DNA from: a virus
Strand: one strand, 5' to 3'
DNA length: 14,963 bases
Virus genome (UHGV): UHGV-0220714
In this document: positions 6,385 through 13,838 of the stretch, piece by piece
Position numbering within the stretch: the stretch's first letter is position 1
How the letters are laid out: each line of letters opens with the position of its first letter
The notes under the pieces: model-generated
Databases searched by the model: none
What the model was told of the DNA's origin: nothing
Seen by the model: the letters and a program-made list of their open reading frames with translations, nothing else
Translations under genes and position numbers: made by a program

Positions 6385-6822
6385 TTATTTATTTGAGAAT
6401 TTTAGGAGTTGGAAAAGTATGATGCTTATATGCATCATTGATGAAGCTGATAGGCCGATCGATAAGGATGGCAACAAAGCAATTGGTTGCTTGCTTGTGG
6501 CCATTAAAAATAACCCCATAAAAAAAACAATGCCAAGCTCCGCAAAGGTCAGTGCATACAGAATAATGACAGATGTCATATATCCGTATGCCTTTACTTT
6601 TTGCATGTTTTTTCCTCTGATGCCTATGACAAACGTCAACGCGGCAATGAGTATTGCGATAGTGGTCCCTGCATATGAAGATATAGCTGCTCCCAGCGCG
6701 TCTCTGTGCTCGGTGAACGAAATTGCTGAGGTAAGGCTACGGAAAATGCAGTAAACGACAATAGTGAAAAGTATTGGTAAAGCGAATAGCAATACGCCGG
6801 GAACGATTTTGTGCTCTCTCAT
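6385..6822 (-). CDS. rexB: RexB-like inner-membrane protein, 145 aa, ~4 TM segments
   Basis: ORF track; four hydrophobic stretches; size and position (between repressor and PL, same strand as cI) match lambda RexB; remembered lambda RexB shares HRD.LGA..SSYAGT.IAILIAALTF. GGGAGG SD 4 nt upstream. Confidence 0.65.
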   Translation of the reverse strand: MREHKIVPGVLLFALPILFTIVVYCIFRSLTSAISFTEHRDALGAAISSYAGTTIAILIAALTFVIGIRGKNMQKVKAYGYMTSVIILYALTFAELGIVFFMGLFLMATSKQPIALLPSLSIGLSASSMMHISIILFQLLKFSNK

Positions 6823-6852
6823 ACGCCCTCCCTTACCCTTAGGTATTCACTC

Positions 6853-7683
6853 TTACTCGTCTTCACAAAAATCTTTATAACTTTTCATTATAACATTTTT
6901 CATTCTTATGTAGCAAATTTCCATTTCCTCTGCAATTTCTTCATTTGTCGATTTGTAAATGTTGGCACTGATGTGCCCCTTGCTTGAAAGGTAGTAGTCA
7001 GTTAGCAAATCAGCTGCGTACTCCTTCGCTTTAAGATGTATGTCACTATGAGAATCATCGGCATTACGAATCAGCTCCTTGGACATGTTGCTGATATTTC
7101 TCATTCTTTTTGGTTTTATTGTTATTTCCACACCTTCAAGAAGCTCTTCTTCGATGGTTTCGATCCCGGCAGCTCTCAGCAAAGGAGACAAAAGCTTGGA
7201 TCCAGACTCAACTCTTAAGGTTGTTCTACCGATGAACTCCATGTCGAGAGCATCATCCCTAGTTACGTCTCTCATCAGAGGTTCTAAACATAGCTTGAAT
7301 GGTTTTGTTATGTTCAATTTATTAGATAAGTAAATTTCAAGCTCACGAACTCTTGGCCCGTGCTGAGTGCAGGCATAACCAATGACGCCATCTTTGATCA
7401 ACAGGAATGATGGAAACGCTAGCGTTTCGTCACTGCCTAATACGTTTTTGATTTCATCGACTGAGAGCGTGGTTTTATTGACCCTTTTAACCAAGTCTGA
7501 GTCATATGTTTTTGTTATTAAATAACATTCTCTGCTAATGTGATGAGCAAATATAAAGTAATCATCAATCTCGAAGGCATTGTTTTTTGCTTTGATTACC
7601 TGTTCGGATAAGCCTGACACCAAATCAATAGGAAAACGTTCCTTACCGTTTTGTTGATAGGAGGCGTAAAAATTAAGTTTCAT
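6853..7683 (-). CDS. rexA: RexA-like protein, 276 aa
   Basis: ORF track; size and position match lambda RexA (279 aa); shared motifs recalled: FPSFL, EPLMR, FIGRTT, IKPK, YLS.KGH, EIAEEM. Confidence 0.65.
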   Translation of the reverse strand: MKLNFYASYQQNGKERFPIDLVSGLSEQVIKAKNNAFEIDDYFIFAHHISRECYLITKTYDSDLVKRVNKTTLSVDEIKNVLGSDETLAFPSFLLIKDGVIGYACTQHGPRVRELEIYLSNKLNITKPFKLCLEPLMRDVTRDDALDMEFIGRTTLRVESGSKLLSPLLRAAGIETIEEELLEGVEITIKPKRMRNISNMSKELIRNADDSHSDIHLKAKEYAADLLTDYYLSSKGHISANIYKSTNEEIAEEMEICYIRMKNVIMKSYKDFCEDE

Positions 7684-8236: not shown

Positions 8237-8944
8237 TCACGAATTTTTCAGCCACTCCCTTGCCTCGATGTCATCCAGATGACGAGATTGCTTCAGAATA
8301 CCAGCCACATACTCCACCTTTGCTACTTGATGATAAGGCAACGTTATAGGCCTGTGGTCCTGGTTAATGCTTGTAAATTGGTATTCTCCATCTCTGTCAT
8401 AGCCAAGAACCTTAATCATGTTGTGTCCTTCAACGGTTCTGACAAACACCTCATCACCCGGGAATACTTTGGTGTTAGGCTCAATGAGTACATATTCTCC
8501 TGATTTTATTCTGGGCCACATGCTGTCTCCTTTCACACGAAGACCAAAGGCATCTGGATCATCGCTATAAATCTTGAGCCACCCATCGCGCTCTTCGGTC
8601 ATCTCGATGGCACCATCAACACCAAGAATTGCCTCACCAACCACGCGCACTAACCCTTTTTTTAATTTGCCAACAAATGAAAGAGTATCTTCATCATTCG
8701 CTCCATTTAACGAAGTGCCGTGCTGAAGCCAAACAACATCAACGTTTAGAAATTTCGCAAGCGCATTCATTTTTTCCTGACGCGGTAAAGACTCAGCATT
8801 AAACCATTTGCTAACGCCTTTGGACGAAAGAGAAAGGGCACGGGCTATGGCCATCCCCCTACCATGTTCATCAAGACCAGCTTCTTTACAGGCTTGCGCT
8901 AGCCGCTGGGCGAATTCTTTGCGCACTTTTTCATTCTGAACCAT
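8237..8944 (-). CDS. cI: CI-type prophage repressor (N-terminal HTH, C-terminal S24/LexA-like peptidase), 235 aa
   Basis: ORF track; GDSMWP serine motif and downstream K in C-terminal domain; divergent from cro across an operator region; no SD before ATG (possibly leaderless). Confidence 0.85.
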   Translation of the reverse strand: MVQNEKVRKEFAQRLAQACKEAGLDEHGRGMAIARALSLSSKGVSKWFNAESLPRQEKMNALAKFLNVDVVWLQHGTSLNGANDEDTLSFVGKLKKGLVRVVGEAILGVDGAIEMTEERDGWLKIYSDDPDAFGLRVKGDSMWPRIKSGEYVLIEPNTKVFPGDEVFVRTVEGHNMIKVLGYDRDGEYQFTSINQDHRPITLPYHQVAKVEYVAGILKQSRHLDDIEAREWLKNS

Positions 8945-9257: not shown

Positions 9258-9292
9258 CGCTCTTTATCAATCTGCACCGCCGACAACGCGGT
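9258..9292 (+). promoter_or_regulatory. nutR site: boxA CGCTCTTTA (9258-9266) plus boxB-like hairpin ACCGC-cgacaac-GCGGT (9276-9292)
   Basis: boxA consensus-like; hairpin loop contains GACAA as in P22 boxB; located between cro and cII. Confidence 0.6.
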
Positions 9293-9678: not shown

Positions 9679-9822
9679 ATGCGAAAAACGCAGGAAAATA
9701 AACGCGTTAATCACCGAAAAGATGTGCTACGTGACCAGTTTTATCAGGGGGTTAATCCAGCAATAGCTGTGCCACTGAGAGAAATACTTAACAGGTACAA
9801 AACTTCGGAGAAGTCAAAATGA
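9679..9822 (+). CDS. Possible small basic protein, 47 aa (MRKTQENKRVNHRKDVLRDQFYQGVNPAIAVPLREILNRYKTSEKSK)
   Basis: In-frame tail of ORF 9511..9822; ATG 9679 with GAGGT 7 nt upstream; stop overlaps next gene ATG (ATGA). Confidence 0.3.
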   Translation: MRKTQENKRVNHRKDVLRDQFYQGVNPAIAVPLREILNRYKTSEKSK

Positions 9823-10550
9823 GCATGAATCTTATGGCTAAGGCCATGAATATAAAGGTTGGCAACCCACTGAGAAAACTGGTTCTGATTAAACTTGCCG
9901 ATAACGCCAATGATAATGGCGAATGCTGGCCTTCATATCAACATGTCGCTGACCAGTGTGAGGTGAGCAGATCGACAGTAAAAAGTCACATTAGGGCACT
10001 GGAAGAGATGGGGCTTTTGAAAAGGGAATTCAGAAGAAAAGGAGAGCTTAACCAGTCAAACGTTTTTTATCTGACGCTGGATAATGCACAACAAATCCAA
10101 CCAGAATCAGGTGGGGCAGGAGCTGCCCCCAGAACCTATCACTCTTTTGAACCAGTCAATGAACCTAAAAACATTATGTTCGAACATGTCCGAACAGAGT
10201 GTGAAAAAACTCCTGACCGTCACGAAGAAACCGACAAGGCATTCGAGGAAATATTCTGGTGTGCAGGCATGCGGAAAGCCGGGAAGAAAAACGCAGCTTC
10301 AGCATTCAGAACACAGTTCAGGGAATGGCGTAAAACTACAAGGGGTACGGCAAGCGAGTTTGCCACGATGCTGGCAGAAGACATCGCATGCAGGAATGGT
10401 AAGCAGTTCGGATTCGACAGGTTGTTACCATCGAGCTACCTGAACGGTCAGCGCTGGAACGACGAAAAGCCAGAAACCATTCAACCACAATCCAAACCAT
10501 CATCCGCAATCACCGTATCGAAAACTGGCTACGTGTTTTTCGACAGGTGA
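9819..10550 (+). CDS. Replication initiation protein with N-terminal winged-HTH, 243 aa
   Basis: ORF track; N-terminal LADNANDNGECWPSYQHVADQCEVSRSTVKSHIRALEEMGLLKR resembles wHTH of phage replication initiators; sits directly upstream of primase-helicase. Confidence 0.65.
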   Translation: MSMNLMAKAMNIKVGNPLRKLVLIKLADNANDNGECWPSYQHVADQCEVSRSTVKSHIRALEEMGLLKREFRRKGELNQSNVFYLTLDNAQQIQPESGGAGAAPRTYHSFEPVNEPKNIMFEHVRTECEKTPDRHEETDKAFEEIFWCAGMRKAGKKNAASAFRTQFREWRKTTRGTASEFATMLAEDIACRNGKQFGFDRLLPSSYLNGQRWNDEKPETIQPQSKPSSAITVSKTGYVFFDR

Positions 10551-10657: not shown

Positions 10658-12538
10658 ATGACGCCAAGTGAACTTAGCGACCTGCTTTGGGCGCAGGTTG
10701 ACAGGGTGGCTCCGCACCTGTTGCCAAACGGCAAGAAAGAGGGGCATGAGTGGGTTGCCGGTAACGTCAACGGTGACAAGGGAAACAGCCTTAAGGTCAA
10801 CCTTAGCGGCAAGAAAAAATGGGCTGATTTCGCTGAGGGAGACGGCGGTGACATGCTTGATTTGTGGATGGCATGTCGTGGAATTAACCTGCATCAGGCT
10901 ATGCAGGAAGCGAAAGCATTTCTCGGTATCAAGGATGACGATCACCATTTCGATGCCAAACGTGAGAAAAAATTCTCCAGACCTGATCGCAAGAAAATCG
11001 CCCGCTACGTTACCAGAACAGAATCCCATCTTGAGTACCTGCAATCGCGTGGCATATCGCCAGAAATCGTAAAGCGCTACGAGGTTGTCAGCGGCAAGGT
11101 GTGGAATGGAGAGCGGGAACTGGATGCTCTGGTGATTCCGTACAAACGCGATGGTGAGTTGTTGCAGGTCAAGCGAATCAGCACTGAGCGCCCGGACGGG
11201 AAGAAAGTCATTATGGCAGAAGGTGATTGCGAACCTTGTCTGTTCGGATGGCAGGCTCTGGACGCTGGCGTGAGGGCGGTTGTACTTTGCGAAGGCGAAA
11301 TTGATTGTATGAGCTATGCGCAATACGGCATCTCGGCGTTATCCGTGCCGTTTGGTGGAGGGAAAGGCGCTAAGCAACAGTGGATTGAGTTTGAGTATCA
11401 CAACCTCGACAGGTTTGAGGAAATATTCATCTCGATGGACGTTGATGATGTTGGTCGTGAAGCCGCAAGGGAAATCGCAAGCCGACTCGGTGAACATCGT
11501 TGCCGTCTTGTTACTCTGCCGTGCAAAGACATCAACGAATGCCTGATGAACGGTGTTACCGAGGATGAAATCTGGCAGTACATCGGCACGGCATCCTACT
11601 TCGATCCTGAAGAACTCTACAGTGCGCGAGAGTTTTACCAGGACACTATCAACGCTTTCTACGGCAAGCAGCAGTATCTGTTTAATCCACCGTGGGAATC
11701 TCTGGCAGATAAATTCCAGTTCCGTGAGGCAGAGTTGACGCTGGTCAATGGTGTGAACGGTCACGGAAAAACGGAGGTTGTCGGGCATATGGCACTTGAG
11801 GCAATGCGTCAGGGTGTGAAGACGTGCATCGCGTCACTTGAGCTGAAGCCTGGTATTCTCCTTAAGCGCCTTACCCGTCAGGCGACGTGCTGCAAGATGC
11901 CGCCAGTGCTGGAAATTGACTCTGCATTTAAATTTTATGACGAAAGACTTTGGGTGTTTGGCCTGACCGGAACGGCGAAAGCCGACAGGCTGATCGAAAT
12001 ATTCGACTACGCTCGCCGCCGATACGGGATCCAGTTATTCATCATCGACAGCCTGATGAAATGTGGCATAGGCGACGATGACTATAACGGGCAGAAGGCG
12101 TTTGTTGACTCGATTTGCGATTTCAAAAACAAAACAAACTCCCACGTCATTCTCGTTACTCACTCGCGAAAAGGAGACAGCGAAGAAAAACCAACCGGGA
12201 AAATGGACGTAAAAGGCTCTGGAGCGATAACAGACCTGACAGACAACCTTTTCATCATCTGGCGTAATAAGGCTCGCGAGAGAGCGTTACAGAGAGTTCA
12301 GAGTGGTGAAAAGATGTCAGAGAAGGACGAACAGCTACTGGCATCTCCGGCATCTGTTTTGATGCTTGAAAAACAACGTAACGGCGAAGGTTGGGAAGGT
12401 GGTGTCCCGTTGTTCCTTGACGAGCAATCGCACCAGTTCCTGCAACTTGAATCAGGATCGCCATATAGCTACATCGCCAATATGCCGAAATCGGAATATG
12501 ACGAGGCGTGGCGACAAGAAAACGTGACGGAGTATTAA
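10658..12538 (+). CDS. Bifunctional DNA primase (Toprim) / DnaB-like replicative helicase, 626 aa
   Basis: ORF track; Toprim-like acidic motifs (LCEGEIDCMS, ISMDVDDVGREAA); Walker A NGVNGHGKTE and Walker B LFIIDSL in C-terminal half; GAGGGA SD. Confidence 0.85.
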   Translation: MTPSELSDLLWAQVDRVAPHLLPNGKKEGHEWVAGNVNGDKGNSLKVNLSGKKKWADFAEGDGGDMLDLWMACRGINLHQAMQEAKAFLGIKDDDHHFDAKREKKFSRPDRKKIARYVTRTESHLEYLQSRGISPEIVKRYEVVSGKVWNGERELDALVIPYKRDGELLQVKRISTERPDGKKVIMAEGDCEPCLFGWQALDAGVRAVVLCEGEIDCMSYAQYGISALSVPFGGGKGAKQQWIEFEYHNLDRFEEIFISMDVDDVGREAAREIASRLGEHRCRLVTLPCKDINECLMNGVTEDEIWQYIGTASYFDPEELYSAREFYQDTINAFYGKQQYLFNPPWESLADKFQFREAELTLVNGVNGHGKTEVVGHMALEAMRQGVKTCIASLELKPGILLKRLTRQATCCKMPPVLEIDSAFKFYDERLWVFGLTGTAKADRLIEIFDYARRRYGIQLFIIDSLMKCGIGDDDYNGQKAFVDSICDFKNKTNSHVILVTHSRKGDSEEKPTGKMDVKGSGAITDLTDNLFIIWRNKARERALQRVQSGEKMSEKDEQLLASPASVLMLEKQRNGEGWEGGVPLFLDEQSHQFLQLESGSPYSYIANMPKSEYDEAWRQENVTEY

Positions 12539-12808
12539 ATGAATAAAAAACAATTAGCCATTCTCGAAAAGGCATGGGATGCACAAATATCATGCGCTTT
12601 GAAAGAACAGGCACTACCAATAATCCAGACCAAATCGAAAATAGCCAGGCAGTTATGCGATGACGGATTCCTGAACGAAGTTGAGATTATGCACCAGATG
12701 GTAACGTTCAGAGGGTATGAGATAAATCATCATGGTATAGCGGCGTATTGCTCCCATCTTCCTGATGACGTTGACATTGATGAAATGGAAAGGGAGATGA
12801 AGCAATGA
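12539..12808 (+). CDS. Hypothetical phage protein, 89 aa
   Basis: ORF track; ATG immediately follows primase stop (TAAATG); GGAG 8 nt upstream. Confidence 0.55.
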   Translation: MNKKQLAILEKAWDAQISCALKEQALPIIQTKSKIARQLCDDGFLNEVEIMHQMVTFRGYEINHHGIAAYCSHLPDDVDIDEMEREMKQ

Positions 12809-12880
12809 CCATCTACATCACTGAGCTTGTAACAGGCCTGCTGGTAATCGCAGGCCTTTTTATTTGGGGGAGAGTAAATC

Positions 12881-13087
12881 GTGGCTGAGTTGATTTTTTC
12901 TGCATTGAGGATTCTCGGTGCTATGTGGATGGTGGCGACGTTCATTGTGGTTGCCAGCAGTTTTGTCCGGTTGGTAGGCGAAGGTAAAGACCTCGTGGGT
13001 GTGCTTTTCGGTAGCATTCTCCTGTGGGTGATTATCGGTGTTGCGCCTGTCGCTGTAGCAAAAATGGCGTGGCGTTTTGTGAGTTGA
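12881..13087 (+). CDS. Small hydrophobic protein, 68 aa, two predicted TM helices, GTG start
   Basis: ORF track; GGGGGAGAG SD 7 nt upstream of GTG; sequence almost entirely hydrophobic (MWMVATFIVVASSF..., LVGVLFGSILLWVIIGVAPVAVA). Confidence 0.4.
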   Translation: MAELIFSALRILGAMWMVATFIVVASSFVRLVGEGKDLVGVLFGSILLWVIIGVAPVAVAKMAWRFVS

Positions 13088-13104
13088 ACTGAGGGTAAGT
13101 ATCG

Positions 13105-13425
13105 ATGGACGAATCAAGAAAGCAGTTTGAAGAAAGTTGGTTGCGACGTGGAGGCGAATCATCAGACCTTATCCGTTACCCTGAAAATCACCATGAAATT
13201 GGCAGTGGTGATATTGGTGGTCAATACGTGATGGACGATGTTCAAGGCCACTGGCAAACGTGGCAGGCATCGCGAGCAGCTATTGAAATAACCGCGCCAA
13301 AGTTTATCGACAGCAGAGAAGCATTAGCCAAAGGGTTTACTGTTGATTATTCCAATGGCTTCGGTGATGCAATGGATGCTTATGAGGAAAACATCCGCGC
13401 TGCTGGAGTCAAAGTGAAGGAGTAA
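13105..13425 (+). CDS. Hypothetical acidic phage protein, 106 aa
   Basis: ORF track; GAGGGT SD upstream. Confidence 0.6.
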   Translation: MDESRKQFEESWLRRGGESSDLIRYPENHHEIGSGDIGGQYVMDDVQGHWQTWQASRAAIEITAPKFIDSREALAKGFTVDYSNGFGDAMDAYEENIRAAGVKVKE

Positions 13426-13427
13426 CG

Positions 13428-13838
13428 ATGAAGCAGACAATCTTCCTCCGAAGTAAGCAACAACAGCAAGCCGCAATCAACGCCATCCTCGCAACACCAC
13501 TCGATAAAGACAAGCCAGTCACCATCCGCATTACTGACTACAAGCGCAACCTTGACCAGAACGCGAAATTTCACGCGATGCTGGCGGATATCGCTCGTCA
13601 GGTTCAATGGTGCGGCAAATGGTTAAAACCGGAACAATGGAAGGTTTTGTTGATCAGCGGTCATGCAGTGGCAACAAACCTGGAAGCTGATGTTTTGCCC
13701 GGGCTTGAAGGCGAATACGTCAACATTCGTGAAAGCAGCGCGCAGATGAGCGTGAAGCGCATGGCAAGTCTGATCGAGTACACAACAGCCTGGGCTATTG
13801 GTCAGGGTGTCAGATTTACCGACAGGAGGTACGAATGA
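13428..13838 (+). CDS. ninB: NinB (Orf-family recombination mediator), 136 aa
   Basis: AAGGAG SD; motif [32 protein letters not shown] parallels lambda NinB SLDQNRKLWACLGDVSRQVEWHGRWLDAESWK (memory). Confidence 0.8.

Follow-up and report, generated by a model that had tools for sequence, protein, structure and literature searches.

The DNA analysed here (UHGV virus genome UHGV-0220714, 14,963 nucleotides, hereafter the window) is from a lambda-like phage or prophage and represents its early region. Its genes run in the order Erf, SSB, cIII, an N-like gene, RexB, RexA, cI, cro and cII, continuing with an O-like initiator (9819..10550), a toprim/DnaB-like primase-helicase (10658..12538), an 89-aa ORF (12539..12808, + strand, PHROG 2239), two smaller frames, ORF1 and ORF2, a 106-aa ORF (PHROG 343) between ORF2 and NinB, and NinB itself (13428..13838). 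The N-like antiterminator gene (5611..6030, PHROG 271, E=6e-48) and cI (8237..8944) lie on the minus strand. Just after cro, at 9258-9266, there is an exact match to boxA, CGCTCTTTA, with a small hairpin next to it, and the two together look like nutR. A promoter scan of 12300..13600 returned one weak match only, at 12564-12593, and otherwise nothing promoter-like upstream of ORF2 in the stretch scanned.

ORF1 occupies 12805..12888 on the + strand and has 27 codons (product MTIYITELVTGLLVIAGLFIWGRVNRG), its ATG lying at 12805 and its stop ending at 12888. A Shine-Dalgarno-like (SD-like) AGGGAG (12791..12796, + strand) is found 8 nt 5′ of the ATG, inside the 3′ end of the 89-aa ORF, and the TGA stop of that ORF overlaps the start codon in an ATGA at 12805-12808. 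The stop of ORF1 (12886-12888) falls 8 nt inside ORF2, the two frames sharing GTGGCTGA at 12881-12888. ORF2 (12881..13087, + strand, 68 aa) opens with a GTG and is preceded, 6 nt 5′, by the Shine-Dalgarno sequence GGGGGAGAG (12866..12874, + strand), the same bases that serve ninB in lambda. An initial annotation made from the letters alone had given the coordinates of both frames, the AGGGAG, the ATGA overlap, the GTG start and its Shine-Dalgarno sequence just so, and re-reading the sequence confirmed them all. It had also held that neither product belongs to a family that can be named. This is still correct for ORF2, but ORF1 has a name.

By sequence, ORF1 is the long-known ninA reading frame carrying the terminator tR2. 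It matches PHROG 5907 (E=1.1e-18, residues 1-26 against 26 of the 27 profile positions), and the ORF1 segment is identical at 76/76 nt to a stretch of HK620 annotated as ‘ninA’ and ‘terminator tR2’. The same ORF is annotated as ninA with tR2 in P22 and Nil2. In lambda the same frame is open at 40567-40647, encoding 26 aa, with ATGA overlaps to both ren and ninB; ninA is listed among the lambda nin genes, and the lambda nin region is a chain of genes joined by ATGA overlaps (PMC8022706). The 76-nt segment is present at 90% identity or more in 385 phage records and was found in 1969 of 5426 complete E. coli genomes. The arrangement in lambda, in HK620 (AF335538: ninA 12302-12385, tR2 12330-12362) and in P22 (X78401) resembles that of the window in its slot, with replication or ren genes before and nin genes after, in an ATG that overlaps the upstream stop and in the GGGGGAGAG Shine-Dalgarno sequence that follows the T-tract. 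Only the neighbours differ. Upstream the 89-aa ORF fills the slot held by ren in lambda, rather than ren or a helicase gene, and downstream there is a 68-aa membrane protein rather than ninB; as a consequence NinA ends here in ...GRVNRG (27 aa) instead of ...GRGKS (26 aa).

ORF1 contains a perfect intrinsic terminator that the initial annotation had overlooked. A terminator consensus scan placed a hairpin at 12834..12857 (+ strand; stem AGGCCTGC, loop TGGTAATC, stem GCAGGCCT) and a T-tract, TTTTATTT, at 12858..12865 (+ strand), and the RNA is predicted to fold into an 8-bp stem with 6 GC pairs and an 8-nt loop, followed by the T-tract. Hairpin and T-tract are identical at 32/32 positions to lambda 40596-40627, between the ren stop (40570) and the ninB start (40644), and tR2 is annotated over the homologous bases in HK620, P22 and Nil2, whilst mEp235 annotates at this place a rho-independent terminator only. 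On the strength of this match, 12834-12865 is a lambda-type intrinsic terminator tR2. A search of 12500-13500 against Rfam gave solely a sub-threshold Trp_leader match at chance level (19.7 bits against a gathering score of 41, E=0.37). In lambda, with the native upstream sequence, tR2 works with an efficiency of ~0.8 when the upstream stop is 18 bp away and of ~0.9 when it is more than 30 bp away, so that ~80-90% of unmodified RNA polymerase is halted (PMC4824070); the corresponding distance in the window is 25 nt. Two stem changes were seen among tR2 variants, C>T and A>G, both of which keep G-U pairs and are also synonymous in ninA, in a collection where most loci had been chosen for the exact hairpin.

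The terminator also accounts for the composition of the ORF1 product. The peptide segment GLLVIAGLFIW is the translation of CUGCUGGUAAUCGCAGGCCUUUUUAUUUGG, a GC-rich hairpin followed by a T-run, so ORF1 is hydrophobic because the sequence of the terminator forces it to be. The initial annotation had named membrane effectors among the possible roles of such small hydrophobic peptides; this hydrophobicity is no evidence for one, since the residues concerned are dictated by the tR2 hairpin and T-tract.

We consider ninA to be probably translated because of its initiation signals in five upstream contexts, the spacing between its stop and the next start, a bias towards synonymous change, reporter data from lambda and the existence of a second allele. 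The five upstream contexts are unrelated (ren, two helicase families, the 89-aa ORF found here and, in Shimwellia, the primase-helicase directly). Each provides an SD-like purine run 6-8 nt 5′ of the ninA ATG, and in all five the upstream stop overlaps or abuts that ATG. On the other side, the 189 loci with the exact hairpin place ~8 unrelated genes after ninA, namely NinB, the 68-aa family (in three subtypes) and proteins of 108, 92, 90, 71, 65 and 60 aa, and with few exceptions the next start codon precedes the ninA stop by 0, 4 or 8 nt. Thirty four distinct 70-nt variants yielded 15 synonymous and 13 nonsynonymous alleles, the latter mostly conservative. This share of synonymous change exceeds the neutral expectation of 27-31% (P=0.003-0.011), in a test of 28 alleles that counts alleles rather than phylogenetically independent events and draws on loci partly selected for the exact hairpin. 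Most ninA loci were gathered through an exact hairpin match or through ORF2, and variation in the hairpin is consequently under-sampled. The bias is also seen in the 29 nt 5′ of the hairpin (8/15, P=0.03), a segment with no known RNA role.

A second ninA allele, found in 105 viral contigs, shares the first ten codons and continues into an unrelated hairpin, AGGGGCTATTTACACAGTAGCCCTT, and T-rich sequence. It keeps an open frame of 24-32 codons that ends near the next start, with a looser stop/start spacing of -10 to +17 nt. In a lambda reporter with native upstream sequence the NinA initiation site was described as ‘not weak’, and translation from it lowered termination at tR2 by only ~10% (Li et al., PMC4824070). 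Nor is ninA indispensable. Rare variants carry nonsense, frameshift or start-loss mutations, and in some Stx-phage-like contigs ninA is interrupted immediately 5′ of the hairpin by an HNH_3/AP2 homing-endonuclease gene, tR2 being kept. Taken together, ninA is probably a translated coupling link across tR2. A short translated ORF lying across an intrinsic terminator is reminiscent of the trp and pyrBI leader-peptide attenuators, and in principle the position of the ribosome could modulate termination here too. The analogy extends to architecture and not to control logic, as ninA/tR2 differs from those systems in having neither an alternative antiterminator hairpin nor regulatory codons, control presumably being exerted by the N protein.

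ORF2 belongs to PHROG 1165, which it matches over its full length (residues 1-68 against all 68 profile positions, E=2.3e-36). Its homologues form 240 clusters at 90% identity, all labelled hypothetical, from Escherichia, Salmonella and one Pantoea MAG. An exhaustive search with ORF2 recovered 16 representatives at E<0.001 among 1.84 billion, and the family is therefore narrow. The subtype found in the window is carried by 529 of the 5426 complete E. coli genomes (~10%), by many Stx2a-converting phages and by HK75, HK629 and mEp235. Among named members of the family, gp69 of Stx2-converting phage 86, gp46 of mEp235 and AEW24540 of TL-2011a are 91-98% identical to ORF2, and HK633_054 and the Salmonella P22-like subtypes are 43-57% identical; all of them sit in the same place, directly after ninA/tR2. 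In mEp235 a shorter, 52-aa version is annotated from an internal ATG, and nothing essential differs. We favour the 68-aa form because residues 1-16 are conserved across subtypes and the Salmonella subtype has an ATG at the same position as the GTG. A distant homologue in another lambdoid prophage follows O and DnaC-like genes and precedes phiTE_015, NinX and NinF, which is the same neighbourhood.

Several lines of comparison indicate that ORF2 is a genuine protein-coding gene. Exactly 68 codons are kept across three subtypes at 57-65% DNA identity, and all start at the same place after the conserved Shine-Dalgarno sequence with either GTG or ATG. At the amino-acid level the H-19B, HK633 and mEp213 subtypes are 53-57% identical to ORF2 and that of Salmonella P22-like phages 43%. 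Between subtypes the Nei-Gojobori dN/dS amounts to 0.27-0.42, dS being close to saturation. The other + frames over ORF2 always hold stops, and the antisense frames are stopped in 14-54 of 54 variants. W16, W49, G53, K61 and W64 are invariant in homologues down to 29-35% identity, with D37 and P56 nearly so; a second tally of the invariant residues lists W16, W49, G53, P56, V57, K61 and W64. Constraint is nonetheless moderate, as befits a dispensable nin gene. Within the closest subtype the variable alleles are distributed 22/13/24 by codon position, which is no third-position excess, truncated or frameshifted copies are common in prophages, and the H-19B copy has an in-frame stop. In the literature nin genes are described as non-essential, a given phage having a selection from a pool of 30-50 (PMC5630979). 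Chance ORFs of similar size do exist in this DNA, including antisense frames of 95 and 100 aa, and it is because ORF1 and ORF2 are conserved, and not because of their size, that we rate them above chance. The proposal that both are real is thus upheld by the conservation seen across phage records and E. coli genomes.

The two transmembrane helices that had been proposed for ORF2 were recovered by two approaches. The Kyte-Doolittle profile has two hydrophobic helices with its minimum at residues 30-40, and AlphaFold2, run with a 20-sequence alignment, gave an antiparallel helical hairpin with helices at residues 2-33 and 38-67 (pLDDT 90.3, pTM 0.69). The product is therefore predicted by the model to insert in the inner membrane as a helical hairpin, and the placement of the charges R10, K61 and R65 relative to the EGKD loop suggests an N-in/C-in topology. 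Searches for a known relative yielded little. Scans of both ORFs and their two neighbours against Pfam, NCBIfam and PADLOC returned nothing useful, the sole match being a sub-threshold one to zf-CCCH_6 on the 89-aa ORF. Foldseek of the ORF2 model against BFVD and the PDB found generic helical hairpins only (best E 0.8), and literature searches turned up no specific characterised small membrane protein of the nin region.

The junctions of the locus bear the marks of lambdoid mosaicism. For 79 viral contigs the stretch homologous to the window starts precisely at 12805, and its other limit is very often 13087; the block bounded by these edges is therefore a unit of exchange. Within it, ninA/tR2 remains ~95-100% identical even where ORF2 has diverged to ~60% DNA identity, which is typical of junction sequences in lambdoid mosaics. 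The initial annotation had described ORF1 and ORF2 together as consecutive ORFs, and they are not an obligate pair, ninA/tR2 being present in 1969 E. coli genomes and this ORF2 subtype in 529. In lambda and P22 ninB follows ninA directly, with no ORF2 between. Besides ORF2, no fewer than three unrelated small membrane proteins occur in the slot behind tR2, so that the transmembrane proteins seen there comprise the 68-aa family, a 60-aa protein with two TM helices, and proteins of 108 and 90 aa that carry a TM helix at the N-terminus. The 60-aa protein was considered as a homologue of ORF2 and rejected (hhalign probability 0.6%). A supposed mutual exclusivity of ren and ORF2 was likewise dismissed, as H-19B and E. 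coli RM14723 carry ren with an ORF2-type junction. In some Salmonella prophages ninA and ORF2 are fused into a 93-94-aa protein by the loss of 1 nt, and these fusions look like single-nucleotide losses in T5 and G5 runs. Programmed frameshifting from ninA into ORF2, which lies at a +1 offset, was rejected, there being no recognisable slippery site.

From these observations we think it likely that the 283-bp block is a standard, exchangeable piece of the early-right (pR) operon of lambda-like phages, made up of the ninA/tR2 coupling link and ORF2, an N-dependent nin gene for a membrane hairpin. Under this proposal tR2 would stop most unmodified polymerase, and only N-modified polymerase arriving from pR/nutR would read through it, a dependence that we infer because of the N-like gene, the boxA and the gene order of the window. 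ORF2 would then be a delayed-early, N-dependent accessory nin gene that is silent in the lysogen, because it lies directly behind tR2 and, apart from the weak match noted above, has no promoter-like sequence upstream within 12300..13600. Translation of ninA would start from a Shine-Dalgarno sequence supplied by whichever gene lies upstream. Translating ribosomes would be passed across the terminator to the GTG of ORF2, whose own Shine-Dalgarno sequence abuts the U-tract, and on leaving ninA 8 nt inside ORF2 they could re-initiate at the GTG or clear structure from around the Shine-Dalgarno sequence. The hand-over from ninA to ORF2 is suggested by comparative anatomy, whilst the start site is backed by the lambda reporter. 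The ORF2 product would reside in the inner membrane with both termini cytoplasmic (R10, K61, R65) and the short EGKD loop outside. What it does there can be proposed only tentatively; it may be an accessory factor that interferes, in the course of lytic growth, with some inner-membrane process of the host or with rival phages, for instance by modulating a membrane protein or by blocking a competitor, a suggestion to which we give somewhat less than even weight.

Other readings of the locus deserve consideration. ORF1 might not be a useful gene at all, its frame being open by chance across tR2 with selection acting only on the terminator and the Shine-Dalgarno sequence. We regard this as unlikely, although several observations favour it. 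The hairpin and T-tract determine which hydrophobic residues are encoded, the NCBI pipeline leaves ORF1 unannotated in E. coli genomes and mEp235 annotates the terminator alone, and the interrupted and mutant copies of ninA, as well as the small effect of its translation on termination, are as this reading would have them. As for the second allele, that a frame of ~26 codons should remain open over a different hairpin is only ~50% unlikely by chance. A chance frame fits poorly, however, with a synonymous bias that extends to the 29 nt 5′ of the hairpin, with SD-like runs correctly spaced in each of five unrelated upstream genes, with a stop only a few nt away from the following start codon in ~8 unrelated downstream contexts, and with a start site that is active in the reporter (PMC4824070). 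The opposite extreme would be a NinA that is a dual-coded, functional membrane micro-peptide of ~26 aa, with the tR2 slot as a landing site for small membrane effectors. These effectors might work together with NinA in lytic growth, for example in phage competition or against host defence. The NinA-ORF2 fusions, the synonymous bias and the hydrophobic NinA tail kept by two alleles that have no tR2 hairpin are all compatible with such a peptide, without proving it, and we consider it rather improbable. Our preferred reading of ninA thus remains that of a coupling link.

For ORF2, on its own or acting with ORF1, the initial annotation had proposed a small membrane toxin, a superinfection-exclusion factor or a membrane-depolarising effector. 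Both products are indeed hydrophobic, the two are naturally joined in the Salmonella fusions, rexA and rexB are present in the window, and the recurrence of unrelated small membrane proteins in the tR2 slot suggests a preferred site for membrane-acting accessory genes. Set against this, ninA occurs mostly without ORF2, as the genome counts and the lambda and P22 junctions attest, PADLOC found no match for either ORF, and neither the family searches nor the fold search linked ORF2 to Hok, TisB, holin, Imm or Sie proteins. Beyond the weak match at 12564-12593, the stretch 12300..13600 shows neither a promoter for ORF2 itself nor an antisense-RNA feature, the two elements that a Hok- or TisB-like type I toxin would have, and ORF2 matches no defence model. 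Its position behind a terminator of ~0.9 efficiency also implies that it would not be expressed in a lysogen, in which it would be unlike the prophage exclusion genes known to us. Together these points speak against a self-contained toxin or an exclusion cassette expressed by the prophage. An effector of this kind is consequently doubtful, about as much so as the micro-peptide, and we do not think that ORF2 is a stand-alone toxin. A holin-like or lysis-timing protein is a good deal less probable still. Class II holins and pinholins have ~68-71 residues and two TM helices, a size and topology that ORF2 resembles. But ORF2 lies in the early-right operon upstream of ninB and not in a lysis cassette beside an endolysin, its C-terminus (KMAWRFVS) is no highly charged tail, having only K61 and R65, it has no dual-start motif, and it matched no holin family in Pfam or PHROGs, the only holin in the fold search having E=6.2. 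More generally, T4 Imm, HK97 gp15, P22 SieA and the pinholins are small phage inner-membrane proteins, and ORF2 is like them and like class II holins at large in being a small phage accessory protein with 1-2 TM helices. It differs from those named in sequence, in fold and in genomic slot, does not have the charged holin tail, and would not be expressed from the prophage. The least probable reading, and one to which we give hardly any weight, is that ORF2 is spurious and that its DNA is conserved for a Rho-dependent terminator or an antisense gene. The antisense ORFs of 95 and 100 aa do overlap ORF2, and Rho-dependent terminators are known from the nin region of lambda (Cheng et al. 1995). Yet at ~60% DNA identity the + frame stays open for exactly 68 codons while the other frames gain stops, dN/dS is below 0.45, Trp, Gly, Pro and Lys positions are conserved at 30% identity, and the predicted structure is confident.

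Both elements, ninA/tR2 and PHROG 1165, are already catalogued, so the finding is largely an ordinary one, and neither the point about ORF2 nor that about ninA will surprise a lambda specialist. Its main value lies in correct labelling, in that the lambda tR2 terminator with its overlapping ninA frame ought not to be scored as a candidate toxin peptide. ORF2 belongs to a narrow enterobacterial-phage family, occurs in ~10% of the complete E. coli genomes, Stx2a-converting phages among its carriers, and would make a sensible target, if one of low priority, in screens of small membrane proteins. Such proteins recur in the slot behind tR2, and the comparisons made here lend weight to the long-standing idea of ninA as a translated coupling link across tR2.

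The small membrane protein encoded directly 3′ of the terminator tR2 differs from phage to phage, and at least four kinds that are unrelated to one another occur there (related loci L098, L104, L119, L131, L335, L338 and others). The 68-aa family, to which ORF2 of the window belongs, is one of these. The second is a 60-aa protein with two TM helices (MVNAFICSLFLVAIF...), for which the hhalign probability against ORF2 was only 0.6%. The remaining two carry an N-terminal TM helix and are 108 aa (VADWQIPIIIL...) and 90–93 aa (MKDLLVTLNVGLSLLGYAYIMF...) in length.

Natural in-frame fusions of NinA and ORF2, 93–94 aa long, were found in Salmonella prophages (P0147, P0149, P0150, P0151), with four different sequences at their junctions. 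These are consistent with 1-nt losses from a homopolymer tract, T5 or G5, within the terminator tail or Shine-Dalgarno sequence, and could be either real mutations or homopolymer sequencing errors. In phage H-19B (L085, AF034975, about 1198..1404), whose record has no annotation over this region, the reading frame of the ORF2 copy is broken by a TGA at codon 15; this is likely a pseudogene or, again, a sequencing error. The 207-nt unannotated gap between ninA and ninB of HK620 (L091, AF335538, 1577..1783) contains a 68-codon ORF, detected by script, of the type-B ORF2 subtype.

The ninA gene also varies. Directly 5′ of the tR2 hairpin, it is interrupted by a 203-aa HNH_3 + AP2 homing-endonuclease gene (L015, 789..1450; also L032; phage record AP012530). 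The truncated ninA reads on as a 34-aa ORF that is still hydrophobic (MTIYITELIAGLSLLMVLTVYIIKYILYANKKTN), and both tR2 and ORF2 are kept downstream. A second ninA/terminator allele is widespread, being present at L244 (111..191) and on 105 IMG/VR contigs (L255 onward). Its first ten codons (MTIYITELIT) are the same as those of the tR2-type ninA, while its hairpin, AGGGGCTATTTACACAGTAGCCCTT followed by TTTTATT, is unrelated to that of tR2. Nevertheless, 24–32 codons are still open (MTIYITELITGAIYTVALFYW...), and the frame ends between -10 and +17 nt from the next start.

Sequence identical to lambda ren-ninA-ninB was also found on contigs, in some cases short ones with low coverage, from Oceanobacillus, Bradyrhizobium, Pseudoxanthomonas, Nocardioides, Shewanella, Pseudomonas and other unrelated genomes (L216, L227, L229, L230, L233, L234, L236–L238, L240, L241, L250–L252). 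This is almost certainly contamination of the assemblies with lambda DNA.

Upstream of ninA, the slot taken by ren in lambda holds an 89-aa ORF of PHROG 2239 (12539..12808); ren is absent from the window, even though rexA and rexB are carried (6385..7683, minus strand). In Shimwellia (L253), ninA lies directly 3′ of the same primase-helicase, without the 89-aa ORF. Just 3′ of cro, an exact boxA (CGCTCTTTA) is followed by a small hairpin, ACCGC-CGACAAC-GCGGT (9258..9290), and this looks like a putative nutR. Similarly, a boxA with one mismatch just upstream of the N-like gene (6092..6100, minus strand) resembles a nutL, and is put forward as a candidate.
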